Assembly (NCBI GenBank): GCA_020137815.1
Contig: CM035359.1
Location: 6,138,001 to 6,202,000 of the forward strand
Origin: Hormiphora californensis
Lineage: Eukaryota > Animalia > Ctenophora
Length of the DNA stretch: 64,000 nucleotides
Direction of reading: 5' to 3'
Within the stretch, counting starts at the first letter, position 1; each line of letters starts with the position of its first letter. The notes under the pieces are model-generated. The model had not been told where the DNA came from. It saw only the letters and a program-made list of their open reading frames with translations, and did no database searches. Of this stretch, positions 12,246 to 59,282 are shown piece by piece. The position numbers were made by a program, and so were the translations under genes.

Positions 12246-18139
<5,894 letters not shown>

Positions 18140-20570: not shown

Positions 20571-21967
20571 TCACACAGCTGCTCCACACAACAGCAGGAG
20601 AATCATTGTAGTAAGAAGGGATATCCGCAGTCCCATAACTCCGCCGCTGGCTAGTGGAGCCCGTTCTATGTCTATCCGAAGGTAGGGGTAGGTAGTTGGT
20701 ATGTCAGCTGTACTAACTGCTGTTATCCAAATGTAGTGGGACGCGTCCGTGGCCAAGTCTGGGGGAGGGGCACATGTTAGTAGTGATTTAATTTGATTCA
20801 ATGAAAGATAAACATGAGAAAGAGATAAGCACGAACATTTGCGTCTTTTAAATATTGATTTGAGGGGGTGATGGGACAACATGCCCACAGCTGCAACATG
20901 CCCACAACATGCCCACAGCTGCATTAGAAGTCGAACTGGTCGTACCATACAAACACATGCATGGATCACTACAATAAAATACACTTACCACTGATAACTC
21001 ACAACATCTTGTAAGTATGACAATTACTTACCACTAATAACTGCCTCAGTGGAGTTGGTACACAGGAGGAGGGAGGCCCAGGGTTTAACTTCTAACCCGC
21101 ACGCCATCCAGTCACCGTTCTGGGTGGAGCCCAGGGGTCTCTCCTGGGGACGGGGGGGGGGGTTGTTTAGTAGAGGTGGGGGATAGAGGGTTGTTTATTA
21201 CAGCCAGGGGTCTTTCCTGGGGACGGGGGGGGGGGGGGGGGGTTGTTTAGTAGAGGTGGGGGATAGAGGGTTGTTTATTACAGCCAGGGGTCTTTCCTGG
21301 GGACGGGGGGGGGTTGTTTAGTAGAGGTGGGGGATAGAGGGTTGTTTATTACAGCCAGGGGTCTTTCCTGGGGACGGGGGGGGGTTGTTTAGTAGAGGTG
21401 GGGGATAGAGGGTTGGATGAGGGGGGGGGGGATAGAGGGTTGGATGAGGGGGGAGTTAGAGGGTTGGATGGGGGGGGGGGTTGTTTAGTAGAGGTGGGGG
21501 ATAGAGGGTTGGATGAGGGGGGAGTTAGAGGGTTGGATGAGGGGGGAGTTAGAGGGTTGTTTAGTACAGCCAGGGGTATTTCCTAGGGTGGGGGAAATAG
21601 AGTATTCAACGTGGTGAACTCTTTTCTGGAGGATAGTGGAAATACATGATAATCAACAGGAACCGACCGAAACAAGTAAACAACCAATCAGAACTCGTTA
21701 TTTAGGTCACGTGACTGGTTATCAGCCAATCAGGGACCAGTATTTCCTGATTCGGTCGGTTCTGATTATTAATCAGGTATGAGAAGAAGGTCCATTTTTT
21801 GGTAATATTAATAAGGCTAGGGGGGGGGGGGGTGTTAGTGAGAATCAGACCGGAGACGGGAGATGGAGGGTGATACTTTAATGGAAGATGTTTACCGCAG
21901 AGAGAATGATATCACACAAGCTGGTAACGGTTTTTTGTGGTTTGGGGGATGGAGAAATCAGCTTAGA

Positions 21968-22057
<90 letters not shown>

Positions 22058-22157
22058 AAGAGAGGAGAAGAGGAGCGATGAGAGAAGAGATATACGAGAG
22101 AGGAGGAGAAGCGAGAACGATGAGAGAGATAGGATCCAGAGAGAGAGGAGAGTAGAG

Positions 22158-22206
<49 letters not shown>

Positions 22207-22395
22207 ATATATAGATGGCTAATACCACACCAAAGAAAAAGCTATTCAGTCACATTAAATCCCTCACGATTTCTCCCGCCCCTGCTTTGCATGCGAGTAG
22301 AAAACAGATGTCCCCATCTCTTGTGTTTGTGTGTGGCATGCAGAGACGTCATGATCCGGCCAGCTCCTGTGTATGTTTGTTTGACCACCTGTCTG

Positions 22396-22426
<31 letters not shown>

Positions 22427-25400
22427 ACTGTACTGTACTGTCTGTTGCGCTATCTGTTTATCTGCTTGTTTTGTCTGTCTTTCTCTTTACCCTTGAGTAT
22501 ACATAATGATTGTCGTTAGGTGCAATTAGCGAGTGTTATTCAAACAATATCCCAGACAGACCTGATAGTACAAACATAGTACACAATACACATGATACTG
22601 CAGGAACCGACCGAAACAAGTAAACAGCCAATCAGAACTCGTTATTTAGGTCACGTGACTGGTTATCAGCCAATCAGGGACCAGTATTTCCTGATTCGGT
22701 CGGTTCCTGTGATACTGTAACTCAGTGCTAATACAACCAAAATAAAGGGATAATGTGGGTTGGTATTGCTCAGACTCTCCCACTCAGTCTACACGGTCAA
22801 AATATAACCTCATAATAACCTCTCACACCTCACCACATACCTCATAATAACCTCTCAAACACCTCATAATAACCTCTCAAACCTCACCACATACCTCAAA
22901 ATAACCTCTATCACACCTCACTAGGTACATACCTCAAAATAACCTCTATCACACCTCACCACATACCTCATAATAACCTCTCAAACCTTACCACATACCT
23001 CTTAATAACCTCTCTCACACCTCCCAACATACCTCATAATAACCTCTCAAACCTCACCACATACCTCATAATACAGGCAGTAGTGTTGGAGAAGGTGAAT
23101 ACTACTGTAATCAGGTGCCTGCCAGTACACTGTCGCACTCTGGTTCTTCATCTTAACCGAAACCTGTAAAAACATTGAAATTCACCATCTTCCAACTCTT
23201 GGGAGTTTAGTTACAGTTGGACCCCGATTTACCGGGATGTAACTCGCGCTCCGAAAATTATAAAAAGATTTAGCAGATCATTGTACCAAATAGGATCTAC
23301 TTACCTCAGAGTTGTAGAGAATGACGTGTCTATCCCTGTTGTATTTGCTGTTATTAAACATATACAGCTGGTATGAGTTGGTAATATCCAGTGGTGATCT
23401 CCTTCCCAATAGGTTCACCTGAGAAGAGATGTGTGAGGTGAGGTGAGGTGAGGTGTGTGAGGTGAGGTGAGGTGAGGTGAGGTGAGGTGAGGTGAGGTGA
23501 GGTGAGGTGAGGTGAGGTGAGGTGAGGTGAGGTGAGGTGAGGTGAGGTGAGGTGAGGTGAGATGTGTGAGGTGAGATGTGTGAGGTGAGGTGTGTGAGGT
23601 GAGATGAGGTGTGTGAGGTGAGATGTGAGAAGAGATGTGTGAGGGGAGGTGTGTGAGGTGAGGTGTGTGAGGTGAGGTATGTGTGAGGTGAGGTGTGTGA
23701 GGTGAGGTGAGGTGTGTAGGAGTTAGTTTTGATCCATCACAGAGCGCTGTGTGAGCTACACAAGCTGTCTGTTAAATGTTCTAACTCTCTTGCCGTCGCA
23801 AAGAAGGCAAAGTCTGTCAAAACTGTATAAATTATACACTAGTTCCGTTCCAAGTTTGATTTTGTGTATACTCACAGTGTAATTCTCCTTTTCAAGTTCC
23901 AACATGAGCATGTGAGGAGGAGCACCCTTTAGAATGGTCACTTCCACTGGGGAGTTACCTAGAAATAGTGGTTACCATTGGTTAAAACTGAGTGGTTACC
24001 ATGGTTACTACTGAGTGGTTACCATGGTTACTCCTGAGTGGTTACCATGGCAACTGATAGTGTTACACAGACAGCACCATACAGCAGTACATGACATCAC
24101 GGGTCAACACACTAATGACATGGTTACATTGTTAGTAACCATGGGTTACCATTGGTTACCATTGGTTACTACTGTTTCCAGGATCAAGCAGGGTTAAATG
24201 CATTACAAATATTTTATGCAGTACACTGTTCCAACATTTCCAACACATTTACATGACAAAAGGAAGCATACATCAATTTCAATGCTGAATAAAGGTGCTG
24301 AAATACACATAGAACACACACAGACATATATATGGAAGATATGTACCTTGGGCAGAATCAGCTAACGCAGAACCTAGGGAGAGGGTAAAGGTGTGTATGA
24401 GTGAGAGAGGAGAGATGTGTGTGAGTGAGAGAGGAGAGATGTGTGTGAGAGAGAGAGGAGAGATGTGTGTGAGAGAGAGGGGAGATGTGTGTGAGTGAGA
24501 GGGGGGAGATATGCGTTTGAGTGAGAGAGGGGAGATGTGTGTGAGAGAGAGGAGAGATGTGTGTGAGTGAGAGAGGAGAGATGTGTGTGAGAGAGAGGGG
24601 AGATGTGTGTGAGTGAGAGGGGGGAGATATGCGTTTGAGTGAGAGAGGGGAGATGTGTGAGAGAGAGGGGAGATGTGTGTGAGTGAGAGAGGGGAGATGT
24701 GCGTGTGAGTGAGAGGGGAGATGTGCGTGTGAGTACTGAGTGAGTGGGACGGTATGGTAAAGGTGTGTATGAGTGAGAGGGAAGGTATGGGAGACGGTGT
24801 GCGAGTGGAGGGTAGATACGGAAGCGGCAAAAATAACGGAAGGGAATGTAAGTGAGGACTGAGGAACGATGTGGTTTGGGAGTCGAGAAGAGAAACAGCA
24901 TTTTCAGCTATATTGTGTTGCATGAGGAGAGATAGAGTCTGTGTGTAAAAGGTAGTAAAGGTGTTTGCAAAAGGTGTGTGTAGATTGAATTGTAGAATTG
25001 GAAAGTAATACTACTGAAAGAGGTGGGGAAATAATGCAGTAGAGGGGGGGATGGGGGTTCAAAGCCCAAAGTGTAATCAGAAATCACAGATCTATCTCCT
25101 GGTTTTAACGCTCATCTTTGCTCCGAAAGACACATCAAAATACATTTCAAGGACTCCCTACACATATTACCACTGCAGTATGTCTACATGTCACATGAGC
25201 AGTGTGTACAGAGAGGTGCTGAAAAGCTGATTGTGTATGACTGCTGACAGGGAAAAGAGATAGGGAGGAGGATAGATAAGGCTGTTTGGTAGATCGAGTA
25301 ATAAATCAGATGATTTTACTATGATCTTCATATCATTAGTGATAAATGAAACGTTATCAACAACTCTGCAGAGTATTCATATTGTTTTTCTGAAATCTGT

Positions 25401-26676: not shown

Positions 26677-26943
26677 GGTCCTATTAATCAAGATCAAGTG
26701 GTTAGGAATTAATCCTGTAGTACAATACTCTATATTGTGTAAAGCCAAAGTGGCCTTTTTAGCTATATTTTTGATTTTAGCCGACCCACTGTGCGACCCA
26801 AATGATGGAAGGAACGCAGTACGCACTAAATACTCAATTAAGAATTGATGAAGCAGTGTGTGTGTAAAGTAAGCACAATAGCAATGTTTATAACTTCTTA
26901 GTTCTTAGTTCTTGGTATGTTGGTATTGTCTTTGTACAGATCC

Positions 26944-27066
26944 TAAAGTGCGTTTCAAACGACTTGACCTGAGATTCCTGGAAATTCAGGATTTCCCCTT
27001 TGTAAATACACGCACAATGCGCCAAATTCCAAGAATTACGGGTCAAGTCGCTTGAAACGGACTTTA
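26944..27066. mobile_element. Degenerate short inverted-repeat element
   Basis: TAAAGTGCGTTTCAAACGACTTGACC ... GGTCAAGTCGCTTGAAACGGACTTTA imperfect TIRs. Confidence 0.55.
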
Positions 27067-27350: not shown

Positions 27351-28610
27351 AGGAACCATAATAAAGTTCAAGAGCGCACCCCATCCAAGAGCGTACCACC
27401 TCCAAAAGACACCACTCCAAGAGCGGGTAAGTCGGAAGAACCTGTCCGTTCCTCTCATGAGCGCTCATGAGTGTATCATGAGTGTGTCATGAGTGTATCA
27501 TGAGTGTATCATGAGCGCTCATGAGACGTTTTTAGGTGTTTCAACGTCTCATGAGCGTTCATGAGTGTATCATGAGTGTGTCATGAGTGTATCATGAGCG
27601 CTCATGAGTGCTCATGAGACCTTGCTCATGAGCGCTCATGAGACATATGTCTCATCCCATCTCTGTTTCAATGTCTCATGAGCGCTCATGAGACGTTTTG
27701 ACCTACATGTGCTCATGAGTGTATCATGAGACATGTCTCATGAGACATATGTCTCATGAGACGTTAGGGTTAGGGTTAGGGTTGGGTTTACGGTTGGGCT
27801 AGGGTTAGGGCTTTCCTTTAGGTCTAGGTACCCGTAGAGGGTAGGGCTAGGTCCAAGCCTATGGGTCAACCCTAACCCTATCCATACGGGTCCCTAGACC
27901 TAAAGGATAACCCTAACCCTAGCCCAACCGTAAACCCAACCCTAACCCTAACCCTAACGTCTCATGAGACATATGTCTCATGAGACATGTCTCATGATAC
28001 ACTCATGAGCACATGTAGGTCAAAACGTCTCATGAGCGCTCATGAGACATTGAAACAGAGATGGGATGAGACATATGTCTCATGAGCGCTCATGAGCAAG
28101 GTCTCATGAGCACTCATGAGCGCTCATGATACACTCATGACACACTCATGATACACTCATGAGCGCTCATGAGACGTTGAAACACCTAAAAACGTCTCAT
28201 GAGCGCTCATGATACACTCATGATACACTCATGACACACTCATGATACACTCATGAGCGCTCATGAGAGGAACGGACAGGTTCTTCCGACTTACCCAAGA
28301 GCGCACCACATCAAAGAGAGCTCCCCATCCAGAAGATACCGCGCGCAGGGGACACCACGCGCAGAAGAGACCGCACGCGCAAATACAACGCCGCGCTGGT
28401 CTCTTCTGCGCGTGGTGTCCCCTGCGCGTGGTATCTTCTGGATGGGGAGCTCTCTTTGATGTGGTGCGCTCTTGAAGTGGTGTCTTTTGGAGGTGGTGCG
28501 CTCTTGGATGTGGTCTCTTTTGGGTGTGGTGCGCTCTCAGGTGGGGTCTCTCTTCGATCGGGTGCGCTCTTGGGTGCTCTTGGAGGCTCTTGAACTTTAT
28601 TATGGTTCCT
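27351..28610. mobile_element. Palindromic non-autonomous DNA transposon (host of nested insertion)
   Basis: TA|AGGAACCATAATAAAGTTCAAGAGC ... GCTCTTGAACTTTATTATGGTTCCT|TA. Internal AAGAGCGCACC subrepeats with their own hairpin centred near 28385. Confidence 0.75.
27425..28296. mobile_element. 872-bp foldback element with TCATGA satellite arms and central TTAGGG/CCCTAA repeats
   Basis: Near-perfect palindrome GGGTAAGTCGGAAGAACCTGTCCG ... CGGACAGGTTCTTCCGACTTACCC centred at ~27860. 6-bp direct repeat AAGAGC on both flanks (27419-27424, 28297-28302). Confidence 0.88.
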
Positions 28611-29087: not shown

Positions 29088-32000
29088 ATGTTTGTGTTAA
29101 CAGCCTTGTTATGGTAGGTCTTCTGAACGGATAACACTTACGGTGTTACTAATAAAACGAATCCTTCAGGCTAGTTAACGAAGCCACCTGCAAGCCAACA
29201 ACATTCCGCTTCACGACACAACCAAGATCCCAGTTCTTCACCACCTCCATCGCTGAGGTCAAATTAAATTGCATTGCAGAAAACGGACTATATGCTGTTC
29301 GGTACACTTGGTACCGTTCTGCGCAAGTTTCAATGCCGCCCCGAGAGAGCGATAGGCTGGAGTTTGGTTCCAGCTCGATATCTGTTAATGTCTCTCGAGG
29401 GGACGATAAGTCATTATTTCAGTGTGCAGCAGAGTCCAATGGGCAAACAATATTTAGTGACGCCGCCAAGTTATCAAGTCAATGTAAGTATTATAAGGTG
29501 CTCCAGCTCCAGAATTCTTTTTAATTAATATTATTGGGTCATTGAATAAATAGTATCTGAGTTCAACTCATATCAGGAAGAATTTTTGAGATTTTGACCT
29601 TAAATTATATTTCCAATCTCAGATTTAGAATTTGGTGGAGTACCGGTTGATAGAACAGTTGTTATATCAACAGCAATAGATGCCATAGCAACGGCATTTT
29701 CCTGCCTTGAACAAGCTAGACAAGTTTCCAGTGACCAGCCTTTTCAAGTGGCATGGTATAAAAACTCTGAAAGTATTGTTACTAAACGAGATACTAATGC
29801 TTGGGTAAGGATTGTTTCATATATGTTCCTCTTTATATTATTATTATTTATTATATTATTAGCTGAGAATCGTACATAGTTATGAAATGGTTTGGTGTTT
29901 CACATTTTTACACTTCAATGTAAATAACCTAAAACAGATTTCCCCTACCAAAGATTAGTCCAAAGTCAGCAACAATAAAAGTTAGAAGATTGGAATCTAC
30001 GGACTCAGCAGAAGACTCTTTACTAAGAATTGAGAGATATGATCTTGTGATTTTTAATCTCAGAATGAAGGACAATGGCCCCTATTTTTGTCGGGCGATC
30101 CAGGGGGATAAGAGTATTACTTTGGGTGTCTGGAATCTCGCTGTCTCTAAACGTAAGATATATCCCTGGATGACAAACTACAAACATAGTGCCGTTCGTA
30201 AGATATATATAAATGTTTTACTGTAGATCAGTTCATAGAATTGTGTATGATGCACAGAAAAAGGTGCAGATTTACAAATCGTCTACTCCCCCAGAGTTTG
30301 ATGACTCCCTAAAGTATCTGATTCTTAATCCAGTAGTGGGGTACGTTACTCAGAGTGTCAATCCAATCACAGGAACACTGGATAATCAGGTATTTAGTTG
30401 TGTGTGACTCTCTTTGTGCCGTCTTTGATTTGTTTGTCTGTCTGTTTGTCTGTTTGAGGAACAAACTTTTTGTTTTAATTGAGCGGCATGACAGAGTATA
30501 ATTTGTTCCATGTTCGTAAACGGTTGCTATTTTTAGCATCATTTGATATATTGTGCTGTATATCGTAATTGAAATTAATTTGCGAAGTGGGTGAAATCAA
30601 CGATAATTAACGTTGTTTGTTTCTCAATTAAATAGTCGTGTGTAATTTCTTTCGGGCGGGGCTGACTTCAAATAAATTTCACCGTGCCAAAACCGGTTTT
30701 TGGGCCCCTTTTAAGAATCTTTTTGAGTGAATATGTGGAAACCCAAATTTGGGAAATTGGGTTATTTATTTGGGGTGGTTTTTATATTTTCCAATTCCCC
30801 CGAAAAAACTAAAAAGGGAAAAAAAAAATTTTTTGAAGGGGGAAAAAAAATAAGCTTAAAAACAAGGCAGGCCTTTTAAATTTTTGGGGCCTTACAATTT
30901 CCCAACTCTTTTAATTCCCAAATTTTATGACATTCCGGAAGTTTTTTTTAAGCTAAACCCACAACCCTTTCCCTTCTCTCCCCCAGGGGGGGCCCCTGAA
31001 AAAAGGGAATTTTAGGGGAAGGTGGGAAAAATTTTAAAAGGAAAAATTTTTTTTATTGGGGGTTTTTTTTGGAAAAAGGAAAAAAATTTTTGGGTTTTTT
31101 GGGGGGTTTGGAAAAATTTCCGTTGTTGTTTTGGGGGGAGGGGGGAAAGGGGGGGAATTTTAAATCAAAGGGGGTTTGGATTTTAAAGAAGCCGGTTGGG
31201 AAATTCAGAACGAGACCCCGAAAGGTTAAATGTAATTCCCCCAGGGAAAAAAGGGGGGGAAGGGAAAAAAGTTGGAAATTTTTAGGGGAATTTTTTTTGG
31301 GGAAGAAAAGCAAAAGGAAAAAAGATTTGAGGGACAAAATTTTTTTGGGAAAGGGGGAAAAAAAAAAGGAAGAAAAAGGGGAAAAAGGGGGAAAAAAAGG
31401 AAAAGGGCCCGGGGAAAAGGGGAGGGAGGAAAAAAAGGGGGGGGGGAGGGGAAAAAGGGGAAAAAAGGGGAAAAAGAAGGAGGAAGAAGAAAAGGAAAGG
31501 AGGGCAAGAATAAGGGGAAGGGGATAAGGGTCAGGCCCAAAAAAGGGGGAAAAAAAATTTTTTTGGGGAAAAAAAAGAGGGGGGAGGGGGGGAAGGAGGA
31601 GGTGGAAAGGGCAAAAGATATTTAAAAAAAATTTTCCCCCCCTTTTTTCCCCTTTCCCTTTTTTTTTTTTTCTTTTTAAGTTTGGGTTTTTTTGGAAATC
31701 CCCACATTCAAAAAGGGGTTTTTGGGAGACCCCTTTGGCCCCTTTTTGGGTTTACTGGGTGGCCCCTTTTCCCTTCAGGGGAAAATTTCCCTTTTGGGTG
31801 GGTTTCCCCCCGCCCCTTTTTCCCCTTTTCCCCCCCCTTTTTTTTTTTTTTTGGTAAAAGGTGAATTTGGAGAACCCGGGGGAAGTTTATTCCCCCCGGT
31901 TATTGGTGAAATTTTCCCAATATACTTATTAAAAGTGGAAAAAGCGAGGCCCATGAAGGTTAAATTGGGGGGGGTGGAGAGGAGGGGAAAAAAGGAAAAA

Positions 32001-32563
32001 AAAAAAAAAAAGGAGAAAAAAAGGGGGGAGGAAATAAAAAGGGGGAAGGAACCCCAAAAAAAATTTCCCCCGGGAGAAGGCGGGGAGGGCAGAGCGGGAA
32101 AAACGGGGGAAAAGGGGAAAAAAAAAAGGGGAAAAAAAGGAGGGAGGGGGGGAAAGAGAGAGAGAGAGAAGCGAGAGAAGAGAGAGAGAGAGAGGAGAGG
32201 ATAGAGAGAGAGCGAGAGGAAGAAGAAGAGAGAGAGAGAGGGGGTAGAGAGGAGCGAAGAGAGGAGAGAGGGGAAGCGAGGAGAGAGAGAGGAGAGATAG
32301 AGAAGAGAGAGAGGAGAGAGAAGCAAGGGATGAAGCAAGAAGAGAGAGAGAAGAGAGAGCTGAGTAAGATAAAAACTCTCTCTCTATCTCTTCTCTCTCT
32401 CTCTCTCTCTAATCTCTTCTCTTCATCTTTGTAACGTTGAAGTTTCTGAGAAATCCTGCAACAGTAGCTGAGAGAAAAGTGGTGATCATTGGGAGATCCC
32501 AATTTAGCCTTTTGGCAGTAATATTCTCTGTGATAGCCAATTATCTTCATTTACTAGGTAAAT

Positions 32564-32634
<71 letters not shown>

Positions 32635-33736
32635 GCTTTTTTTGCTGCTAACTGCGTCACGTACATTTCCGGTCCAGTAACACTGGTTCAAGTATTCCAC
32701 TTCCCAATCTGGTTTCATCTGAACAGCTGAATTATTTCCGTCATACTATATTCATTGATTAGCAGTGGAAATAGCAGAGAAGAAATCTATGCCAAGGTTA
32801 ATATTAGAGAGAGGGGAAGTGGAGACTGGAGAGGGTATAACACATAGATAGAAATGAAAAAAGATAGTGTAATGAACAGGAGTAAAAAGGTGAGAGGATA
32901 ATTAAAAAGTGTGCATAAGGTAATTGCCCTCCTAAAATAATTTCCCCTGGTCCGAGAAGCTGCTGGCGAGCACGCTCTCTGTCATTCGTAGCTGCCGGAC
33001 AAGCGGTGGGAAAAGTTGAGAAAACACGCACTTTAGAGATAGAGAGAGAGGGAGAGAGAAAGAGATAGAGAGAGATAGAGAGAGAAAGAGATAGAGAGAA
33101 AGGGAGAGAGAGAAACATAAAGAGGAAAAAATAGAGAGGAGTTTGAGTAAAGTGCAAAATAGGTCACTGCAATTATATAATTGGAAAAGAAGTGATTATG
33201 GACGGGTTATAATTGCACGGGTGTGGGCTAATGTGGTATCCTCGTAATGGGTAGACAATAAAATAATAAAATAATCCCATCTCAGATATTTGTGAAACCT
33301 AGAAAATTGAAGATTCTCATCATAACCTTTTTCCTGCACACTCTAGTTATACCCCATACACTGATACACTGGTCTGTGAACCTGAAGGAAGACGTGTTCA
33401 ACACTTTTCATCACCAGTTAATTAATTAGAAGTGCTAACTAGATCTAGGTTCTATCTGCATTCATCTTCATTTCTATATTTCAATAAGTGAAATGAGGTG
33501 CTGTAACAGGCAGGGACAGGTGTTGGCCGCCAATTTCATTTTGAAAGCAGGAGCGTGCACTGCAGTACAACTAATTAGCATATTGTCGTATCTCTCTATC
33601 TTTTTCTCTCTCTCTATCGTTCTTTAACGTAATACGTATTACCCTTCCTCTCTCTTCTTTTGTGTCACAAACCGATTCTTTAAGAAATGTGGGAGGTTCG
33701 TACGCATCAGCCATTATAATGAATGTCAATATATGC

Positions 33737-33809
<73 letters not shown>

Positions 33810-38645: not shown

Positions 38646-38707
<62 letters not shown>

Positions 38708-44700: not shown

Positions 44701-47700
44701 GACAGAGTGACAGAGAAAGATAGAGAGAGAGAGAGAGAGTGGAATATTTTGCAGCACTACCAAAAGTACATGCAATGCATCGAAAATTATACTTTTGAAA
44801 CAAATTTAGTCATTGCATGATCTGATTCATTCTACCCAGGCCATAAAAATATTTCCATGATGTAAAAGAAAAGGGGTTTTTTTGCCAGTTTTTTTAAAAC
44901 CTTCCAAATTTGGGATTGGGCCCCCAAAGGCCCCCGTCTAAAACCGAAACCCCCAGTATCTTTTGGAAAAATTTGGGAGGGGAAAAAAAAAAAAACTGTT
45001 CTATCTTGTGTTTTTTGACACAATTTTAAAAGAAACCATTCACCAAAAGGGTTAAACTAACGTTTTTATTTTTGGGGAAACAACCGGCAAAAAAGAAAAG
45101 GGCCAAGGGGAAAAAATCATTTAGAGCCGTGAAAAGAGAGGAGAGAGGAGTCGAGAGAGAGTAAGGGAAGAGAGGGGGAAGAGAGGAGGAGGGCATGCAG
45201 GGAGGGAGGAGAAAACCAAATTAGGGGCCAGAAAAATAGAGATGGAGAAGTGAGCAGAGTGGGAAAGCCGGGTTTCCAATAAACTTATCATCTCGTATCC
45301 CCTAGATAATCACCTCCCAATATAAATCTCTCCTTTCTCCCCTCCTCTCTCTCTCTCCCTTTTCCCTCTTTTCTCTTTTTCCTCAAACAAAATTCTCCGT
45401 CTCTCTCCCCTTTTTTTTTTTTGGGTTTTTCGTTGTCTGGGTGGTGGTTAAAATTGCCAAAAACCCAAAATGATCTTGACCCCCTTTCTTAAAATTTGGG
45501 TGGGGATGATTGTCATTTCCTCTCTCTTTATGTCTCTATCTATCTCTCTCTATCGCTCTCTCTTTTATCTCTCTCCCTTGTCTGAATAAGCAGCGGGATC
45601 AACATGTGCTATTTTTACTCTCAAATCCCAAATAAAACTCTCTCTCTCCCTGATTTAATCTAACCCTACGCTCAGGTCAAAACTCTTTCAGGAAGACAAG
45701 CCGGGAGCTAAAAAGGCGAAAATTTGGAAGTTGAGGTTGGTAACAAAGGGTTACCCCTCTGTCGAGGGGGGGGGAAAACAAAACCCGCTACCCGTTTTTA
45801 AGAAAATTCCTTAAAAATTTAACGCTGAAAACGTCCAGGATGGCCCCCCCCAAAAACAATTACAAAATATTACGTAGGGCCCCGATGGCACGCCGGGAAA
45901 TTCCATGTTTTACGCAGTCTGTTATGGGCCCCCACTTACCGCCTCGGAACCCATGCGTCTAGGGACGTTTTGGAAAACCCCCGCAATAACCCCCACCCGC
46001 CCCTTTTTCCCACGCTTATTTCTAGCGCCCCCCGAAGGGGCGCGTGCCTTTTTCCCCCTTTTTTCAAAAAAATTTTAAAAAAAAAAAGTTTTTTAGAGTC
46101 AAAATTTTTAAATTTTCGTTTGAAATCCCAAAACTTGCTCCAACCATTTTGTATTCTCAAATTGAAAAGTTGAAGCTTTGGTCTATGTTCCTTGGGCGTA
46201 GGGGAGACACACTGAAGTTGGGCGCGCTCGCTCAAATCCCAACCTCGCGACACACTGAAGCTCGAAGTCCCGCGAAAACCCATTTCCGGCCGAGAAATCA
46301 CCCGCAAGAGGCCAACCCATCCACTGGCACATCTATCGAGATGTCCCCCATCCATACCGAGCCAATCCCACCGCTTTCGAAACTTTTGGCTAATTCGGTC
46401 ACAGTTGGCCCAATTCACCAAAAATTCCCAAAAACGGTGAAATCGACTCGATATAGACAAAGGACACCTCGAGAGATGCACCAGCAACAAGTTAGCATCC
46501 CCACAAGCGACCCCCCAGCCAAAAAAGGGCCCTCGCGAAACCCCGAACTTTCCTGCGAAACTTCGAACCCCAGTGTGTTTCACGCGGCCGAGAGCCGAAC
46601 GCGAGCGACCAACCTCAGTGTGTTTCCCCCCGTAGAGCAAGTCTGGACAAACTTTTGAACTCGTATAAAGTCACACCGGGCCTTTGCAACTTTTTCTTGT
46701 CACTTTGCAGTCTTTTGAAGCTACTTTTTCTGCTAGAAATGCGTATTTTGCTTATTTTGCTATTATCTTGTTTCCAATAGATTTGGCGCTAAAGCTGTTT
46801 TGAAGAGTCCAATAACGTAAAACGGGCGATAAAAGAGAAACATGCAGTTACTTAACTCTTAGACACTTTCCACTTTTTTGTCACACAAGTTTTGCCCTTG
46901 CACTCAAACTGAAATTATTTATTGTAGAGTTTTTCTAGACTTCAAAATCTTAATGCCCCGTCATTTTAGGGCATATTCTGATATCTGCTTGCATTTTTCT
47001 TTTGAGCTTGCCCAATGCCAGTTGACGGCTTCAAACTGTACGACGGGTCACGGGGTGCATTTAAAGACTCCACTGCGAACACCTCATCTCGGGAGATATA
47101 AAGATGTAGCAATGGTGGCGTTACCTCAACTTAATCTTTAGATTTATAACACACACACTCCACTCTAGGATATGATGTCCTTCTCAATAAGTCAGAAGAG
47201 AATAACCTACAGTTGCAGCAGGGGCGACCTATGACAGACAGGGGAAAGCAATGTGCGATGAAAAAAGTGTCTATAATGGCATCTCAGTATGTAATAAGGT
47301 GAGAGCAACCAGTGTTTAGAAGGCACTCTTTTTTTTCTCTTTGCCCCTATCTCTGTATAGATGCCAATATTTTTTTGGGTAGGTGGTACCACAATCTGAA
47401 CCAATATTTCTCTCTCTCTCTCTATCCCTCTCTCTCCTTGCGTAACAAACATCTTCCCAAACATATTGAATTTAAAGTGAGAGGTGCACGAAAACAAAAG
47501 TCGGAATAATGTATAAAATAAATTGCGTATAACATTTCTTGATGTTCAATTAGAAGATTGGTGAAAAGATGACGTCTCAATGTTGTGTTTGAAATTAACT
47601 AGGAACGTACGTGCAAGCTCCAAACACAAGTTAGAAGCATGGTACCTTCACCAACTTAATTGTTTTGATCCAAGAAAAAGTGAAGGTCTCATGTGTCTGA

Positions 47701-49674
47701 ATTTCAAACACAACATCGAGACGTCATCTTTTCATCAAACTTTTAATTGGACACAAAGGAATGTTACACACAATTAGTTTAGACATAGTATAATAATAAT
47801 AATAATAATTCCAACTTTCGTTTTCGTGCACCTCTCACTTTAAAGGACCTGACCCTTAGTTTATACCTATTTTGACCCGTACTTGAGAGTTGAACGGTCA
47901 GCGTACAAGCTGCTTCTTGCAGAGGTTGCCTGATATTACGATGATCATGAGTCCCATCTCACACAAAGGACTTCTTCCTTCTAATCATTTCCTACCAACC
48001 CCTAACAACACATAACATTCCCAAGATAACAGACGTTTAGAGGGTCGAAGGAAGTAGGAATTACTGTCGATTTGAGAAATTGTGGAATCAGTAACATAGC
48101 ATGAAGTGTCAACCTAACAGATTGGTGAGTTTAAAAGTTTAGCATTCCATTTTTCATTATTGTCACTTTGTGTCACCCTAACCGACAGATACTTATTTTT
48201 GATTATATAAGTTTAAAGTTCCCCATTGGTCTCTACTGCCACACGTCACTTTTTCAGGTATTTATTAACCCAAAGAAGGGAAAGAATACTACATCGCTGC
48301 TGGATAAATATCTGAAGTATTGATGCTGTATTGATAGAATGGCTTGATATGAGAGGAGGAAGTACATAAATGAAACAGATTAATGAAACGGGAAGACAAT
48401 CAATTACAATGTAAGCAGGCTGGGTGACGACGTGAGTATGTAGTTGTAGTAGCCTGACTCCTGAAGAAGGACGTGTGTTACATTGTAACAGGCCTGTGGA
48501 CGTGTGTTTAATAGTAGCAGGCCTGTGGAAATGTGTTAGATTGTAGCAGGCCTTGTATTGGGACGTGTGAACCCCTCCAGCCTCTTCTCCCTTAGTAACA
48601 CCCCTCTCTTCAGATTATCATATCCTGGACAAGGGGAAATGTTGCTATATAGAGGAATTAACTGAAGCTGTGCTAACTCTATGACGAGAGATGATCCACA
48701 GGACCCATGTATCACTGAAGCAAGTGAATCATATCGTTAGATCAGGTATAAACAGTTGAACTCCTATATAGAGACATTGCGGGGAGGGATGCATGGGACA
48801 GGTTGGGTGTTCAATGAACACCCAACCTGTCCCACATCCCTCCACAGAGTGGACCCCTCCCCCCAATTGAACAGTGATCAATGAACGCTGACGGCTGATC
48901 ATTGATCAATGCTCACCTGGCATGGTGTCCAACCAGTTGGCTAGTGGACCCCCCTCCCCCCTCCCCCCGTTCAATAGAGGGACAAAAGGGCATTGTGTCC
49001 AGTGAACACTTGCCCCTCTATTGGGGAGAGTGGACCGCCATAGACAAGATTGTTATAGTATTTAGTTGCGTGCAGGTAGTAGAGAATACATGTAGTGTTT
49101 AGGTAATAGGTATCAGAGAATAGTTCTCGAGGCATTCTGCCTTTCCCCGCTTAAAATTGACCCCTTCCTTAATATAACCTATATTAGTCATTCTCCTATA
49201 AATAACAAAAATATCTCCGTGATTTTAAGGGTAACATTCTCAGAGAACCATGCTCTACTACCTACAACAATGTTGTCCAATTCTATGTCGGTCCCCTCTC
49301 ACCAAGTAACACTTTGTAACATATAACGAAAACATAACGTTCTCTTCTGCACATGTTGCAAAATGTTTCGTGTCACCCCCCCCCCCTTTTACTGTATCGT
49401 TTACACACTCATTTTATTTGCCCTGTCCTCCACCTAAATATCGGGGTGTTCCAGAGAACTTGCTAACCGACAATGTCTCTCAGGTTATCAAAGAAAGCCA
49501 CAACACACAAGCGATGGGAATTAACGACCTTTACTCCGGTTTCCCAGTCTCGATTAAGGCCCTGAATTCCGGACTGTTCTGCTCAATATCTGTTTGAAAA
49601 GAAGCGACCTGATATGCTTGATTCATATGCTGTGAGACTGTGAGAGAGGAAGAGAAGCACTGAGATAGAGAGAT

Positions 49675-49765
<91 letters not shown>

Positions 49766-51141
49766 AACAGAGAGAGAGAGAGGGAGAGAGTGTGTTTATT
49801 GTATGTTGACTAAAATATGTACATAGTAAAATACTTTGTTATAGTTTGACAGGAACACAACCTCCAAACGTTCGAACTAAGTTCCGTGTTTTGACCACTT
49901 TTTAACACATGTATAAAACATGGCCTCCCCTCTACTAAGTTTCTGATCCAGCCTTCTTTGTGTGCCAACACTTAACCCATGGTGCTGCACCCCACAAATC
50001 CGGGTGAAAATGTACCACATGTCACAAATATGCGCTAAACTTTACGTCACGCGCGGAGAGCTCACTAAGGGGTTGGAAACAGACGAAGAAAACTCAGCAG
50101 CATGGGCGCGCGGCGTGTTTTGCACTGCTAACAACTCGTGGACGCGCGGGCGGAAGACTACCTAGACGCATGTCTGTCAGCTCGCTTACGCTCGCCCTTC
50201 GGGCTCGCGTAAGCTCGCACCGGGCCTTCGGCCCGGTGTGAGAGCTGACAGACAAGGAACATGTCAAGCCAGGACATGATATGTCACTAGTCCAAGATTT
50301 TAGCCTCCGAATCTGCTGTTTTTTACCAACTTTGTCGAATTTTCACGGCCAAACTATAACTTAATTTGAATTGATTTTATCACAATTGTGCTAGGTATAG
50401 TCCACAGCACCATCTCACCGAATATGAAGTTTCAAAAACGCGATCTTCATCGAAATTCAACTTCAAAAACAGTGTTAATGATGAAATAACATCAAAATTA
50501 ACATACTACACCATTCTTGAGACAATTTCATGGCTGTAGAAAAAGGATTTAGCCAAATCTGTTTTATGGTTGAGGCGGTATTAATTTTTGAAAAATATGA
50601 AACCGATTCTGTTACCCCTACATAGGGCATTGCAATAGTAAGGCACGTTTTAGCGTGCCCGCAATGTAGGGGGAACTGCGTTACCAAAAGTCTGAGTTAA
50701 TATTTGTTGGTCAAGCATATCGCACGTTCGAGCCTTTGAGCCACAAAAAGTCAATGTGTTTGAAGTGCAAGATGACTGGAGTCAGTTCATACACGTAGCG
50801 CGCGGTGCTCAGTTTATTATGAAAGTCACTGTGACAGAATGAGGTGCGCGCGTTCACATGGTTTGCTTGTCGCGCGCGCGTTTGTTTGTCAGGCGCTGAC
50901 AAGCAATCTGAAGCACACGGTGTCTCCCTTTTTAGAGCCAAATGTTCCTAAACCACTAAATTTCCAACAATTTCAAACTACCATTCTTTCCCAGGACAGG
51001 ACTGGCTACGCGGAGGTGGAATTTGTACCAAAGGGAGGAAAGAAACAGCCGGCGAAAGTAGATAAAAAAGATGACACGAGTTATAGCACCATGAAAATAC
51101 GACCAGTTAGCAATCCCCGATATAACAATGCTGAACTGTGA
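29088..51141 (+). CDS. Immunoglobulin-superfamily type I membrane receptor (~7 Ig domains, TM, tyrosine-motif tail)
   Basis: Exons 29088-29113, 29170-29483, 29623-29804, 29954-30152, 30295-30389, [gap in garbled 30.7-32.3 kb], 34151-34271, 34848-34999, 36037-36164, 36623-36756, 38195-38301, 40032-40181, 40724-40876, 41602-41701, 42488-42565, 42755-42863, 42961-43021, 44188-44333, [probable garbled 45676-45739], 47213-47298, 50995-51141. Phases match within each block. Signal peptide MFVLTALLWLVNEATC. Ig motifs VKLNCIA..YTWY..FQCAA, DNGPYFCRA, VTLTCEARGYPLPKV..DNGRYECVASN, HCVVEGNPAPSKIFW. TM LGLLIGGIVLFIIMAIVIYIIV followed by RRRKK. Confidence 0.85.
30680..32350. other. Low-quality homopolymer-inflated consensus hiding Ig-gene exon(s)
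   Basis: Homopolymer runs. The flanking exons end in phase 0 (30389) and resume in phase 1 (34151), so at least one exon is missing. Confidence 0.8.
34690..34836 (+). repeat. 14-bp tandem repeat CCCTAATTCTGAAT upstream of acceptor 34847
   Basis: About 8 imperfect units, most carrying a CTAAT branch-point-like motif. Confidence 0.75.
35095..35176. repeat. Perfect 82-bp palindrome
   Basis: TGTGACTGACTGACTGAGTTCAAATAACTCAATGATTTCTT|AAGAAATCATTGAGTTATTTGAACTCAGTCAGTCAGTCACA, no spacer. Confidence 0.9.
35908..36016. mobile_element. hAT-type MITE (109 bp), copy 3
   Basis: Same TIRs. TSD ACCATTGT/ACCATTAT (one mismatch). Ends 20 nt before the acceptor at 36036. Confidence 0.85.
36743..36965 (+). 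repeat. 36-bp minisatellite containing six copies of exon end and donor
   Basis: Unit GGGATCAATCAGAG|GTAATATATGAGGGGAGGTTGA. The first copy is the functional junction at 36756/36757; the last copy has lost the GT. Confidence 0.9.
40249..40760 (+). repeat. 72-bp minisatellite containing seven copies of branch point, pyrimidine tract, acceptor and exon start
   Basis: Unit CACCTAACCACCTCCCCCTAACCCTCTCCCTCGCTCCTCAG|AGTCCTCCTGTAGACGGAGACCGGGGAATAA. AG intact at 40288, 40360, 40505, 40577 and 40722 (functional); two units have lost the AG. Confidence 0.92.
43988..44122 (+). repeat. ~43-bp tandem repeat x3
   Basis: TTTATCACTCCCAAATACAGATCCCCTCCCCCAAACCAGTACC repeated upstream of the TM-exon acceptor. 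Confidence 0.8.
44830..46650. other. Low-quality consensus segment
   Basis: Homopolymer-inflated and garbled GA/TC sequence. Contains a probable error-bearing 64-nt exon 45676-45739 (CTAAC..CTCAG|GTC ... GTTG|GTAAC) that would supply the required phase 0 to 1 switch. Confidence 0.65.
47476..47839. mobile_element. 364-bp foldback MITE with TTAA TSD (Kolobok-like)
   Basis: TTAA|AGTGAGAGGTGCACGAAAAC ... GTTTTCGTGCACCTCTCACT|TTAA. Long internal inverted match TGAAAAGATGACGTCTCAATGTTGTGTTTGAAATT / AATTTCAAACACAACATCGAGACGTCATCTTTTCA. AG start with TTAA TSD fits Kolobok rather than piggyBac (CCY). Confidence 0.8.
49660..49790 (+). repeat. (GA)n microsatellite
   Basis: Long GA run. Confidence 0.9.
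50171..50254. repeat. T-shaped (two-armed) hairpin repeat
   Basis: Outer stem TGTCTGTCAGCTC/GAGCTGACAGACA enclosing two hairpins with TTC loops. Related copies at 53757-53830 and 53843-53897. Confidence 0.8.
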
Positions 51142-52076: not shown

Positions 52077-55000
52077 TTACCAGATCTTTAGTCTGATTTT
52101 CTTAACAAACATGACAGTCACTAAAGCATTGCAGATTATAAAGTAGGCTGTCACTATTGCCAAGGATTGGGTGTAGGTGAATTCTGATTTCTGTGGGTTG
52201 AACACCATGTTGACTGTCCCTGTTAGGATGTTTCCTGTAGGGGAGAGAGAGAGTGAGATCGAGAATCGTTTGAATTTCGGGCGGGAAAGGGTCTGCCTTT
52301 CTGGCATCGCCGTTTTGATTCTCAGATCGGGTAAAAGTAGAAAATTAAATAGGTTCCAAGCCATAAAATATCGATGGGGAGTAATTAACATAGCGTGAGA
52401 TATAGATAGAGAGATACTGATAGCAGATAGTGAGAGATAGATCTGGGAGAGAAAACTTAACTAAAATGATTCAGAAGCACAATATATACCCAATATGAAA
52501 TAATGTAGTTCACTCTGTTGAACAGAAGGAATAAGACAGGCACAGGATACAGTACGTGATCGTTCCACACATGATTTACACCCTCCCATTACATGCGGTG
52601 TGGCACTCTCCCCAGTCTTGGTTAGGTCCACACTCCTGTAACCTGGATAGAGAGAGTAGGGCCGGTCAGAAGTGAGAAGTGAAACTTCCGAAGTGTTGAA
52701 TTTAGCGCTTCATGCCTGCCCTCTTTCATTTTCAATCTCCTTCATAGATGTTACCACGTATCCAATTAAACTTACACATAGCGTTGGTGAGTATTTCCAC
52801 ACTTAAAATGGAGATAACCATTGTCAGATTGTGGGCAGTAGTCCAAATAGTGTAGGTCAGATTAGCATGGCACCGTGATGCTGTCTAGAAGGGGTGTTGG
52901 AGAACTAGTGGGAGTTTAGAGAATCGGGAGGGCTGTCTGGCAGGTGGTCATGGTTCAGGGTTGGAGAATTAGTGGGAGTTTAGAGAATCGGGAGGGCTTT
53001 CTGGCGGCGCCGACCCGATATGAGCGCCAGACAGCGGTGGGATCTGTCAGATTGGGTGGAGAGAGTCCTAAAAACCTAAACTTGTTTCCAACTTCAACTA
53101 AATACCTGGGTGTTGTTATGTGATACGACTGTCAAGATCCAGGCAAGGCAACAAATTATCAATAGTTTTCCAAACATTCTCAATATCTCCTCAAGGGTTT
53201 CCCTGCAGAAGTTAATTTAGGTCGAGGGGCCATGGGACAAGGATATTATCAGGACTCCGGATATTCTGATATCCGCGGATGTGCGATATTTGAACTCTAG
53301 CATCGATTACAGTCGGACCAGGATTTACCAGGATGCTCGGGGAAAGGGTTTTGCCCGGTAAATCGGGGTGAAATACTATACATACTAATTTTCTATATCG
53401 GGGAAGTTTTCCTTCCGGTAAATCGGCGCGACGGCGCCGGACTGTACTTTAATATCTACTTGTTATTTGTACGACGTTGTTTACGGTAGATTTACCTCTT
53501 CTGAAAAATTATCTTTCCAATAGCAAGCCCAAAGAAATAAAGCCCTAACATTCCAAATGAACTGAAGACTCCCTCTCTGTTTGCATTAAGAAATCCTCCT
53601 GCGTGAGAATCGTCACCCCATAACCCGTTTAATAACTTATCTGAAAACGAATGACAAATTTAGAATCCGTAGTTAATTCAAAGCTGTTTCATTGCTATGC
53701 TACGCAGTCTGTCCATTCGTTGCCATGCTACGCAGTCTCTCCATTCGGCACTTTAAGCGCCTCGCTTCGGGCTCGCGTAAGCTCACACCGGGCCGAAGGC
53801 CCGGTGTGAGAGCTGACAGACATGGAACATTTCAATCCATTCGGCCCCTTCGGGCTCGCGTAAGCTCATACCGGGGCCGGTGTGAGAGCCGACAGACTGG
53901 ACGTAGTGGGAACATTTCAACTGTTTCCAGTCGACGCACACTGCACAGCATGGTTTTGGAATTTCCCACGCTCCGCGCACAGTGAGTGCTGAAATGCGGT
54001 ACTTTGCCACATCTGAGACGCCGCGCGCAACACAAATACCACTCCAGCTTGCAACAAGCACGCCCTGCATATTTTCATGTTTGTCCTGACCCGTGTGAGA
54101 CAAAGTCCCTCTCTATCTACTGATACAGTTTAACGTGTGTGGAAATATGTACACTGATCATTGCCTCTGTAGGCGCTACCTTGATCCTGCGATCTGCATA
54201 TATTGATTGATGAAACTCACCAGAAAAGCAAAAGCAAAAGCAAAATGATGAAACTCACCAGAGAAATGAAAGTGCGATAGGAGGGTTTGGTAGAATAGGG
54301 AGAGTGCACCAGCGAGGATCCAAGGTGAAGTAGCGAGAGGGAGAATGGTGAGAATAACACTTGACCCTGCCTGAAAGGGTGAATTCTCTGTCGAAATATA
54401 CAGGAAATATCAAATTTCACATTCCTGTGAACTTCTCATGTTCAACTTTTGGGTAAATTTTGGGCCAGCCTTCATGAATCAGCAGTGCATAGACCATAAC
54501 TGCATTTTACGGCATAATACATGGCTGCTATAACACTTTTGTCCTAATTTAGCATAATACCCACGGGCCACGGGCCACGGCCATTCGTCCTAAATCAACA
54601 TTACATTTGAACCGTGGCTGCACTGGTATGAAAATAGACCTGTGTCGCATATTGTGACTCTGAGCATATTCATGAAACATCACTGGCTAGCAGAGGATCA
54701 CTATATTGTCTTGCTCGCCCCTCACAGGCTGTCATAATACAGGTATTCTGGGAAACTTACCTTAACGACAGCAAGGGTAAAGAAGAAATTCCAATCCCTC
54801 CCGTATTCTAACGCTGAGTAATGGTAATCCAGATAACCTGGGAAGAAAGGGGGAATGGTATTGCAGTTAAATTAGAAGGAGGAGGAGTTATCTGTAGGTT
54901 TCCTAAATAGAAGACAGAATTTTCGGTTAAACATGTGGATCTGAGGAGTTTTTCAGCGCTTTAGTTGAGTCCATGTGACTTTTCTATGTTTCACTTTGTA

Positions 55001-56510: not shown

Positions 56511-56553
<43 letters not shown>

Positions 56554-56776
56554 GCAGAGAGAGAGAGGAGAGCGCGAGAGAGAGAGAGAAGAGAGAGAGA
56601 GTGAGAGAGAGAAGAGAGAGAGAGAGAGATCGAGAGAGAGAGAGAGAGAGAGAGAGACGAGAGAGAGAGAAGAGAGAGAGCGATCAGAGAATCGATAGAG
56701 AGAGACGACCAGAGTCGATTCTTCTCGATCCTATTCTATCTATCGCTCTCTCTCTCTCATTCTCATATCTCTCTCG

Positions 56777-56835
<59 letters not shown>

Positions 56836-57261
56836 CATCTCCCTCTCTCTCTCTCTCTCTCCATTGCCAAATGACCAGTTTATTAGTCAAATAATTACCT
56901 ATTCAGCTTCTTCAAATTGCCAAGATTTCACGAACTGTGTACATTCTTGTTTACGACAGAGCCAGCGATCAAACGTGTGATTTATACGGTGTAATGAATT
57001 TCGGAGGTAGGGGGTAATTTCGTTACCAATCGAATAATACAGTGGCAGGGACGTCTCATACTATGATCCGTATTAACGTAGTTCCATTCATATTAGCAGT
57101 ACTAAAATTGTTATATGAATCAGTCTATTGTTCTAGGATTCTGGAAATAGGAAATAATATTCTAATCCTCCACATATAATCGAGTTACATACTGCAATGC
57201 TACTCTGTCCAGCCCGGCATAATAATTCACTTTCACAGCTCATAAGTCTACACACACACAA

Positions 57262-57294
<33 letters not shown>

Positions 57295-59074
57295 CACACA
57301 CACACAATGGGAGAAGGGTTTTGACATAGCAACTATACAGACTGAACCCAACATTGCAGTTGCAGATGTTGGGGGCAGTCTTGTGTACAGTGCATTTTAG
57401 AATTCAGATTTAGAATTCAGATTTATTCGCTGAGTAATATCTGATCCACAACACATGTCTGTTTGACATTTGTCTGTACATAACAATATTATTAGGCGTC
57501 ACTTTCATCTTTCATTCATACAATATTTCCTCTCAGTTCAATGTGTTCATATCAGCTGAATACCTACAATAGTTCCCATCTCTCTCTCAGTCATGTCTCA
57601 ACATATAAAGGACAATATAGCCCACATATAATATAATGATATTCGATAATTATTAAAACTGGGTGATCAACTGCTAGTATTAGAGTGTCTGACCGTGTAT
57701 AAGGTCGAAATAAGGCACAGCGCTTTTCTGAATCAGCTAGTCAAGACGAATCCAACGCAACAGGAATTAGCTTTCTATCTCATCGGGAAGTGCTGGGTCT
57801 GGAACCCTCATTTTTAGTCATTTTTCGTTATTCATCTAGATCCTAGCTCGTGGCAATAATATTATAGTGGTGTGTGTGTGTGTGTATTTCCCAGCTGGCT
57901 CCAAAGTGCTGTGCGGTAGATTGGAACACAACTTTGAAACTTGATATTATTATGCAATGTGTATCACGTCCAGAATTCGGGAGTTTAGAGAAGCCTGGCA
58001 AGTTCCAGAATAAAAATATCAACTTTCATTTCTTTAGAAACTAGAAAACTGAACATTTCTATGCACCTCCTCCCGTCCCCCTATGCTATCATAACTATTT
58101 CAGACCCCCATGTAGGTTTTGAAAATATAATTCAAAGATCAATGATATACCAGCCATTTTCCGAACTACAAGCTCAGAATAAGACTACCTTTTTCCGAGT
58201 GCCCCAGTTCTGGTTGGGATCAGCCCGTGCCTCGGGGGCTACAAGTCCTGCCATGAACACGAAACTGCCCACTCCAGTATCCATCAGGGAGTACCCATAG
58301 ACACGAGTCTTGTGGTAGTCAGCTGGAAATAAGGGGGTTGTTACTTGGTTATTGTAAAAGTGAGTACTGGGTAGAAGTGTTGAGAGATCTCTAGCCATAC
58401 TACGTAATAAGCTGAAGTGAATAATACTGGCATGAAGCCAGAATGGTTGGTTGGTTGGTATGAGCGGCTGGTGATTTGGGAGCATGAAGCCAGAATGTGA
58501 CAGAAGGTTACATGCGAGAGATTGTGAGCATTTGGTCCCAACTATAAGTTGGTGACTCAGTCACCCCTATACTGCACCAACAGCAACGTGAATCCCGCAA
58601 GGCGATGACATCACTATGAGAGTTCGACTCTAGAAAGGTGTAACGATAGTAACACCGTGTTTCAACTTGTTTAGTACACGAAAGTGTGTACTTCCTCATT
58701 CAATGGAATGCATGTACGGAACAACAAACCCTGTTTACTGTTCATATTTTAGAGGAAAGTAAAATTCAAGAATACCTTTTTAGGTCTAACTTTGCAAAAA
58801 CACAATACCCCACTACTACTTGGTAATGAAATTACCCCTCCGCGTTATAATGGCTCACAGAGCTATATATGCACAGAGCTATATGCAATAAAAGGGGTGA
58901 CTTCGTAACCAACACTACTACTCACGGTGAAAGACCTCCCTGAAGTCAACTGCGAGGATGCATATAACAGTTGACATGGTAACGAAAGATCTGTAGGCGG
59001 TTATGTAGGTCCGAGTCTTGGTGAACAGGTAGGGGCTATCCAGGGGTGGGAGCAGGGTGGCAGGAGACCGTAAC
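52077..59074 (-). CDS. PIGW: GPI inositol acyltransferase PIG-W/GWT1 (5' exons not recoverable)
   Basis: Exons (minus) 59074-58926, 58322-58189, 55610-55541, 54837-54761, 54370-54259, 53640-53496, 53202-53106, 52884-52776, 52642-52490, 52234-52077, all in phase. Family motifs YRSF..STVICILAVDF, KT.VYGYSLMDTGVGSFVF, EYGRDWNFFFTLAVVK, NANREGVFSSFG, SRCHANLTYTIW, FILGNILTGTVN, and ending IRLKIW-stop. Confidence 0.93.
53310..53444. mobile_element. Tc1/mariner-type MITE
   Basis: TA|CAGTC ... GACTG|TA with internal GATTTACC/GGTAAATC inverted motifs. A related end fragment CAGTTGGACCCCGATTTACCGGGATG lies at ~23214. Confidence 0.6.
56183..56266. mobile_element. Mutator-type MITE
   Basis: TTGGTAACGA ... 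TCGTTACCAA termini. Flanks TACACAGAGC/CACACAGAGC (10-bp TSD, one mismatch). Internal GGCACGCTAAAACGTGCC hairpin is shared with 50636-50687. Confidence 0.65.
56465..56862. repeat. (GA)n tract followed by (TC)n tract
   Basis: GA-rich 56465-56705 and TC-rich 56740-56862 form a loose inverted repeat. Confidence 0.85.
58820..58912. mobile_element. Mutator-type MITE with 9-bp TSD
   Basis: CACTACTAC|TTGGTAATGAAATTACCCC ... GGGGTGACTTCGTAACCAA|CACTACTAC. Same TIR family as 56183; solo ends at ~913, ~50670 and ~57010. Confidence 0.75.
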
Positions 59075-59282
59075 CTGAGTGAGAGAGAGATGTTATCTTG
59101 GTTAACAAGTAGGGGCTATCCAGGGGTGGGAGTAGGGTGGCAGGGGACCGTAACCTGAGTGAGAGAGAGAGGGTGTCACCTGCTGGAAAACCATCACCCA
59201 CAGATTGCAGCCCCTATAACACATGGTGACAATTGGTTATGCTATACAGTATATACGGCCGGTTCAATAAGTCTGGAGCCCT

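Follow-up and report, generated by a model that had tools for sequence, protein, structure and literature searches.

How is the edge of an exon recognized when that edge, with its splice signal, is repeated in the adjoining intron? The question is raised by a stretch of 64,000 nucleotides (nt) from the ctenophore Hormiphora californensis (assembly GCA_020137815.1, contig CM035359.1, positions 6,138,001 to 6,202,000), which is called the window below and is numbered from its first letter. In three genes of the window, eight exon-intron junctions are duplicated into their own introns. It is probable that these eight loci are mirage-type minisatellites, that is, near-neutral duplications kept since the spliceosome likely uses the exon-proximal copy. 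This explanation starts from copies with intact splice signals, from the premature stops that use of the spare signals (decoys) would bring in, from alleles with and without the copies, and from complex repeats that are modestly over-represented at exon edges.

Junctions copied into introns

Gene models were built from continuous reading frames with AG and GT ends. The four genes predicted in this way have 81 junctions, a median internal exon of 113 nt and a median intron of 458 nt. A scan by self-alignment over distances of 12-400 nt, blind to these junctions, gave 1731 raw hits, reduced by a low-complexity filter to 224, which form 39 complex duplication events, 32 of them genic. Eight of the 32 span an exon-intron junction (8 of the 81 modelled junctions), and they are exactly those that the first-pass annotation had described as duplicated into introns. 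Seven further genic events come to an end no more than 15 nt from a junction and leave its splice site uncopied; the other 17 lie away from junctions. The chance rate of the scan is 2 hits over 10 Markov shuffles of 29 kb.

The host genes are gene 1 (26676-20574, minus strand; 9 exons, 337 amino acids (aa), with hydrophobic N- and C-termini), gene 2, a multi-Ig type I membrane protein (29088-51141, plus strand; modelled in two parts with a noisy stretch between them), and gene 3, PIG-W/GWT1 (59074-52093, minus strand; 10 exons modelled, the 5' part missing). The copied segments or units are 17-134 nt long. Five loci are head-to-tail arrays, as first described for all eight, and the other three (21032, 36623 and 54259) carry spaced or partial copies, which were unreported by Tandem Repeats Finder (TRF).

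Gene 1 has three of the loci, all on the minus strand. At donor 21032 (20983-21042) there is one copy 43 nt into the intron, comprising 11 exon and 6 intron nt; the decoy GTAAGT is identical, giving two intact sites with the true one. The array at acceptor 21143 (21131-21588) combines units of 71-80 nt with units of 24 nt in a mosaic, with intact decoy AGs at 21216, 21296 and 21367 and one dead copy. The array at donor 23065 (22807-23073) consists of 22-34 nt units with six GTATG decoys, seven such sites including the true one, and four weak GTs.

In the Ig gene, on the plus strand, the decoys of acceptor 36623 (36478-36634), at 36488 and 36564, make three sites with the true one and lie in a 134-nt segment missing from another allele. 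The array at donor 36756 (36743-36967) has six units of 36-39 nt, five of them with GT, hence four decoys; it is a single copy in sample S2. The array at acceptor 40724 (40251-40759) has seven units of 72-73 nt, five of them with AG, four being decoys. Units 3 and 6 are without AG, and unit 6 adjoins the true site; the array, which starts at 40251, has a 217-nt higher-order period with these two AG-less units, an observation that may bear on concerted turnover within mirage clusters. The PIG-W loci, on the minus strand, have two sites each. At donor 54259 (54208-54262) one copy lies 38 nt into the intron, with only 4 exon and 13 intron nt copied, and at acceptor 59074 (59016-59170) one copy of an 80-nt unit includes about 59 exon nt, its decoy at 59154 shifting the frame.

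The observation of the first-pass annotation is confirmed, with some of its copy counts slightly high in terms of intact signals: AG persists in 5 of 7 units at 40724 and in 4 of 5 at 21143, and GT in 5 of 6 at 36756. The view that a process rather than a repeat family is at work holds. The units of the eight loci share no sequence, which rules out a dispersed repeat family, and a cDNA-mediated origin is ruled out by the copies joining exon to intron, never exon to exon. The copies do enlarge introns. The 40181-40724 intron is 542 nt long with its array and would be 108 nt without it, and two alleles described below lack 134 and about 201 nt. Where the intron could be measured, at seven of the host junctions, it is 273-1921 nt long.

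Short-read DNA contigs could be placed on 33810-38640; X1 and X2 represent one sample and X5 another. A joint of 36477 to 36612 in X1, X2 and X5 deletes exactly the 134 nt that hold both decoy acceptors of 36623. Contigs with the window's form at 36448-36641 are present as well, with 0 differences in X1 and 6 in X5. Because the deletion joint and the window form are both found in reads, both 36623 alleles are real. In X5 a joint of 36781 to 36983 leaves a single copy of the 36756 donor; the contig with this joint was computed to account for nearly all X5 depth in both array bins. X1 and X2 are without it, their listed contigs ending at the edges of the 36756 array, with extra depth in the first array bin. 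Read support is therefore direct for the 36623 copy, and that of X1 and X2 for the 36756 array is indirect. At both loci examined there is an allele that lacks the additional copies, and the copy-number polymorphism that had been anticipated is thus borne out at two of the eight loci, in short-read contigs. The alleles also differ by many intronic single-nucleotide variants (SNVs) and insertions or deletions (indels).

Known counterparts and the choice of the splice site

Although the first-pass annotation knew of no description of the phenomenon at such density, the same structure exists in two known systems. Mirages, tandem copies of exon-intron boundaries, were named in the amphioxus gene Adh3 and also occur in the globins BflGb6 and BflGb9, in troponin C and in PGBD5; they have units of 10-160 bp, retain AG or GT in many but not all of these, and differ in copy number between haplotypes (PMC3087553, PMC3902484). 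The accessible parts of these papers report no apparent disturbance of splicing (PMC3087553, PMC3902484) and call the origin of mirages unclear (PMC3087553). In human F7 IVS7, the first unit of a 37-bp variable-number tandem repeat (VNTR) spans the donor and identical pseudo-donors follow, in variable copy number; only the first of several identical donors was found by experiment to be used (PMC1557585).

The window units resemble amphioxus mirages in being short and local, in spanning 5' or 3' boundaries of modelled junctions in several unrelated genes, in retaining AG or GT in part, and in the different allele lengths at both loci examined. They differ in their ctenophore host, in their density of 8 of 81 junctions in one window, in having presence/absence alleles, and in the spaced two-copy cases. 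The 36756 array, with its 36-nt units, is nearly identical in architecture to the F7 IVS7 VNTR, the true donor lying in the first unit and identical donors downstream. F7, however, is a single donor-side locus, and the window has both donors and acceptors. Amphioxus mirages are known for apparently normal splicing and for somatic instability, and the F7 pseudo-sites, functional but idle as long as the first donor is present, are silent by experiment, whereas the window loci are described from DNA sequence. Proto-splice sites duplicated in tandem, a proposed route of intron gain (Rogers 1989; Zhuo 2007; Gao and Lynch 2009, as cited in PMC3087553), are likewise internal duplications bearing splice signals, but what the window shows is the lengthening of introns already present and not the gain of an intron or exon.

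A literature search, with most subscription papers and supplements outside its reach, turned up neither a ctenophore mirage nor a genome-wide test. The Hormiphora genome paper gives 13% tandem repeats and has nothing on junctions in its accessible parts. As far as modelled junctions allow, the copies are the same structure as amphioxus mirages and F7 IVS7, and their interest lies in the taxon, the density and the natural alleles.

When splice sites are scored with a weight matrix built from the 73 junctions free of arrays, the 12 donor decoys score the same as the true sites, and 9 of the 10 acceptor decoys score about equal or better. Translation of the models predicts a premature stop from all 22 consensus decoys, extending to each of them the first-pass statement that the frame survives in the exon-proximal copy alone; one weak GT at +12 of the 23065 array, which is not among the 22, is in frame and stop-free. 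Nonsense-mediated decay (NMD) follows a rule of 50-55 nt distance to the last junction. For 21 of the 22 decoys the stop precedes the last junction by more than 50 nt, and for the decoy at 20989 by 38 nt. Occasional use of a decoy would therefore give a premature stop and, likely, removal of the transcript by NMD. A possible RNA run, X7, has a single contig, located on a repeat, and zero on exons, and is uninformative on expression.

The exon-proximal site might be chosen by cross-exon definition or by first-donor scanning. Exon definition and long flanking introns favour cross-exon pairing (PMC9225289). The decay of signals in the arrays, with 2 of 7 units at 40724 lacking AG and 1 of 6 at 36756 lacking GT, speaks for the near-neutral explanation. 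For donors, choice of the exon-proximal site has a direct precedent in F7; the acceptor case is weaker. The loss of AG in unit 6 at 40724 could reflect selection or chance.

Exon edges and the origin of the copies

The formation of the arrays can be pictured as follows. Local repair or slippage would copy segments of 17-134 nt, and would do so oftener at intron ends, with their C-rich pyrimidine tracts and G-rich donor flanks. A copy wholly within the exon would be purged. A copy across the edge would survive because the exon stays whole and the spare falls into the intron, provided that the exon-proximal site is used. The array might then grow and collapse by unequal exchange or slippage.

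G-quadruplex-prone DNA destabilises minisatellites. On a G4Hunter-like strand-skew score of our own implementation, intron ends are the more skewed parts of introns, 16% of 73 array-free flanks scoring at least 0.8 versus 3% of 422 windows from intron interiors (P = 0.001). The four arrayed acceptors are more skewed than the 37 others (P = 0.019).

The frequency of copies at exon edges was assessed with and without most of 44334-50994, in a single window picked for the pattern and with a 15-nt cut-off set after looking. When one unit per event is placed at random, 1.8-3.2 spanning events are expected and 8 are seen (P = 0.0002-0.01), although this null understated three unit lengths and so inflated the significance. 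Generous unit lengths raise the expectation to 2.9-5.2 (P = 0.006-0.12). Rotation of the junctions against full-length arrays, a conservative procedure, gives 5.6 expected spanning events (P = 0.16), and 9.4 versus the observed 15 for events that span a junction or come within 15 nt of one (P = 0.02).

The ends of the events give a similar picture. Twelve of the 32 genic events end within 15 nt of a junction, with 4.1 expected (P = 0.0008; at cut-offs of 40 and 60 nt P = 0.09 and 0.14), and 7 of the 24 non-spanning events abut a junction versus 0.9-1.5 expected. In the independent list provided by TRF, complex arrays ending within 15 nt number 9 of 25, with 3.0 expected (P = 0.0008; at wider cut-offs of 25, 40 and 70 nt P = 0.03, 0.08 and 0.02), and mono- and dinucleotide TRF repeats 0 of 19, with 2.3 expected. 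The excess is therefore modest, about 1.5-4.5 fold, with P from 0.0002 to 0.16 depending on the null. The enrichment that the first-pass annotation had proposed to test is found in this modest form within the window, and falls short for strict spanning under rotation. Its splice-linked mutational bias needs a wider name: because seven events abut junctions without containing the splice site, the pattern is wider than splice-site copying and the bias is better called exon-edge than splice-junction.

Several points weigh against the explanation by near-neutral mirages. To the selection of the window and of the cut-off is added the strictly spanning excess, non-significant under two nulls (P = 0.12 and P = 0.16). 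Arrayed donors are no more skewed than plain donors (P = 0.34, n = 4), and the acceptor result itself rests on n = 4. Read support is limited to 36623 and 36756, and the short alleles may be either ancestral or collapsed. The choice of the exon-proximal site is predicted from sequence models. For acceptors, the decoys at 40724 score 13.1-13.6 in the weight matrix versus 11.6 for the true site, and the farthest of them lies 108 nt from the upstream donor; acceptor decoys may for these reasons be used. In the accessible part of a study of human splicing, the preference for the upstream 3' site is merely reduced under exon definition, its reversal not being shown (PMC9225289).

An extension of the mirage explanation, that exon edges are a true duplication hotspot across animals, ctenophores included, with about one junction in ten hit in this genome, is put forward only tentatively. 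The opposite case, in which exon edges have no bias at all, is unlikely. In a genome rich in local duplications and with short introns, some duplications would then overlap junctions by chance and survive as the exon stays whole, in a window picked for their abundance. The full-array rotation (P = 0.16), the generous-unit null (P = 0.056-0.12), the median intron and the 17 of 32 events away from junctions are all as expected under such chance overlap; the complex TRF arrays near junctions, three times the expected number with no simple repeats among the 19, and the seven abutting events are not.

The excess might also be real and still neutral, arising from allele divergence or retention rather than base skew. 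Recombination could begin in conserved exons and slip where intron homology fails, or deletions of intronic copies could be purged when they reach splice signals. The many intronic SNVs and indels between the alleles would suit such a process, as would the 3.2% heterozygosity and raised intronic indel rates of a related ctenophore (PMC8527503). However, polymorphism is present at both arrays open to a check, a state more in keeping with young or unstable copies than with prolonged retention. We regard this origin as quite improbable, while noting that one window cannot cleanly separate it from the near-neutral mirage explanation.

A functional role of the arrays, their copy number tuning productive splicing via NMD or generating truncated isoforms, is very improbable. 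Its best candidate is the decoy at 20989, use of which would drop the hydrophobic C-terminus of gene 1. The scores of the decoys, about equal to or above the true site in 21 of 22, and the stops, beyond 50 nt from the last junction in the same proportion, would suit such a role. Stops are, however, what any intron sequence would be expected to give, no relationship links the host genes, one of which is the housekeeping PIG-W, other alleles dispense with the arrays, and published mirages splice normally; the NMD-tuning reading is unsupported. That the majority of the arrays were created in assembly by noisy long reads is hardly credible, for although the window has long stretches of homopolymer noise (e.g. 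30690-32160 and 59280-62240) and the read check covers two of eight cases, a short-read contig reproduces 36448-36641 exactly in X1 and nearly so in a second sample, X5, and the units carry patterned variants, as in the 217-nt period, within otherwise clean sequence.

Host genes, neighbouring elements and significance

Other repeats are found beside exon edges. On the plus strand, a 55-nt array of 2.3 copies (17494-17638) ends at acceptor 17640 of a homeobox gene, the acceptor being uncopied, a 12-24 nt array (34681-34837) ends 10 nt upstream of acceptor 34848, and a 34-nt array (41713-41806) starts 12 nt past donor 41701. A 71-nt copy of exon bases 40797-40867, also on the plus strand, lies 311 nt downstream in the intron (41108-41178), its source stopping 9 nt before the donor. 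On the minus strand, a pentamer repeat (23433-23714) ends 15 nt upstream of acceptor 23418, a 23-nt array (23967-24050) 9 nt upstream of acceptor 23958, a 24-nt pyrimidine-rich array (24384-24790) 11-19 nt upstream of acceptor 24373, and a 46-nt duplication (52896-53005) 12 nt upstream of the PIG-W acceptor 52884. The homeobox gene (12246-18037, plus strand; six exons, Pfam Homeodomain) looks Bsh/Bsx-like in sequence.

The N-terminal part of gene 1 matches the EukProt model P0002 of Pleurobrachia bachei, and the Ig gene matches P0001. One 49-aa exon of the window is 100% and one 58-aa exon 98% identical to these records, and several others are only about 76-96% identical, which makes the window Pleurobrachia-like. 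P0001 supports the modelled junction at 40724; as Pleurobrachia bachei records, P0001 and P0002 are uninformative on which copy this organism splices. GWT1 matches support the 59074 exon and both exons flanking the 54259 exon. A homologue search with the 36623 exon gave zero matches, and one with the 59074 exon gave one insect protein at 28% identity, of no use for placing junctions. The frame of the Ig gene is supported because 9 of its 12 listed exon variants in the short-read contigs are synonymous, a count that leaves out three listed variants of the candidate exon 37842-37911; synonymous variants also back the junctions of the 36623-36756 exon. Apparent constraint on the host frames, seen in this count, speaks for the near-neutral explanation.

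The candidate exon 37842-37911 (70 nt) was dropped, since its inclusion breaks the Ig-gene frame. It lies in the 36756-38195 intron, where good AG and GT signals accompany it, and may be a poison exon or a dead one. Several exon-like segments with good splice signals (within 44428-49600, at about 44428-44438, 47170-47298, 48259-48435 and 48613-48746) occur in the final intron modelled for the Ig gene; they are possibly alternative exons or a nested transcript. The model of the Ig gene omits exon-like segments in 44334-50994 and exons hidden in the noisy part at 30390-34150. Homopolymer noise of the sort that a poor consensus leaves runs through four long stretches (3700-4450, 30690-32160, 44870-46100 and 59280-62240), in which Ig-gene exons and the 5' part of PIG-W are probably hidden. 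In an allele present in X1, X2 and X5, an 83-nt intronic segment with a short palindrome (35102-35184) is swapped for 28 other letters.

Between gene 1 and gene 2 lies an 870-nt near-perfect palindrome (27426-28295), 96.8% self-complementary, with runs of telomere-like hexamers near its centre and 11-nt repeats in its arms. A 110-nt element with terminal inverted repeats of 15-19 nt has three copies of at least 98% identity (21657-21765, 22601-22709 and 35907-36017), all intronic, and occurs also in the metagenome contigs L001 and L002. Its summed contig depth is very high, which suggests a high-copy miniature inverted-repeat transposable element (MITE). Two metagenome contigs of 1.2-1.4 kb found with the window's hairpin element have no local duplications, their lengths being too short for a replicate.

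Mirages have been known from a handful of lancelet genes and from human F7, and the ctenophore case widens this range. In practice, gene prediction and the assembly of short reads can go astray at arrays of this kind. The alleles with and without an array are natural controls for the choice among identical splice sites and for intron growth. If the copies are merely neutral clutter at the background rate, they are a curiosity. If the exon-edge hotspot is true, the natural alleles would allow exon definition to be tested directly in a ctenophore. The most telling locus would be 40724, with an intron of 542 instead of 108 nt, decoys that score above the true acceptor, and a nearest decoy that is without AG, as if selected against.

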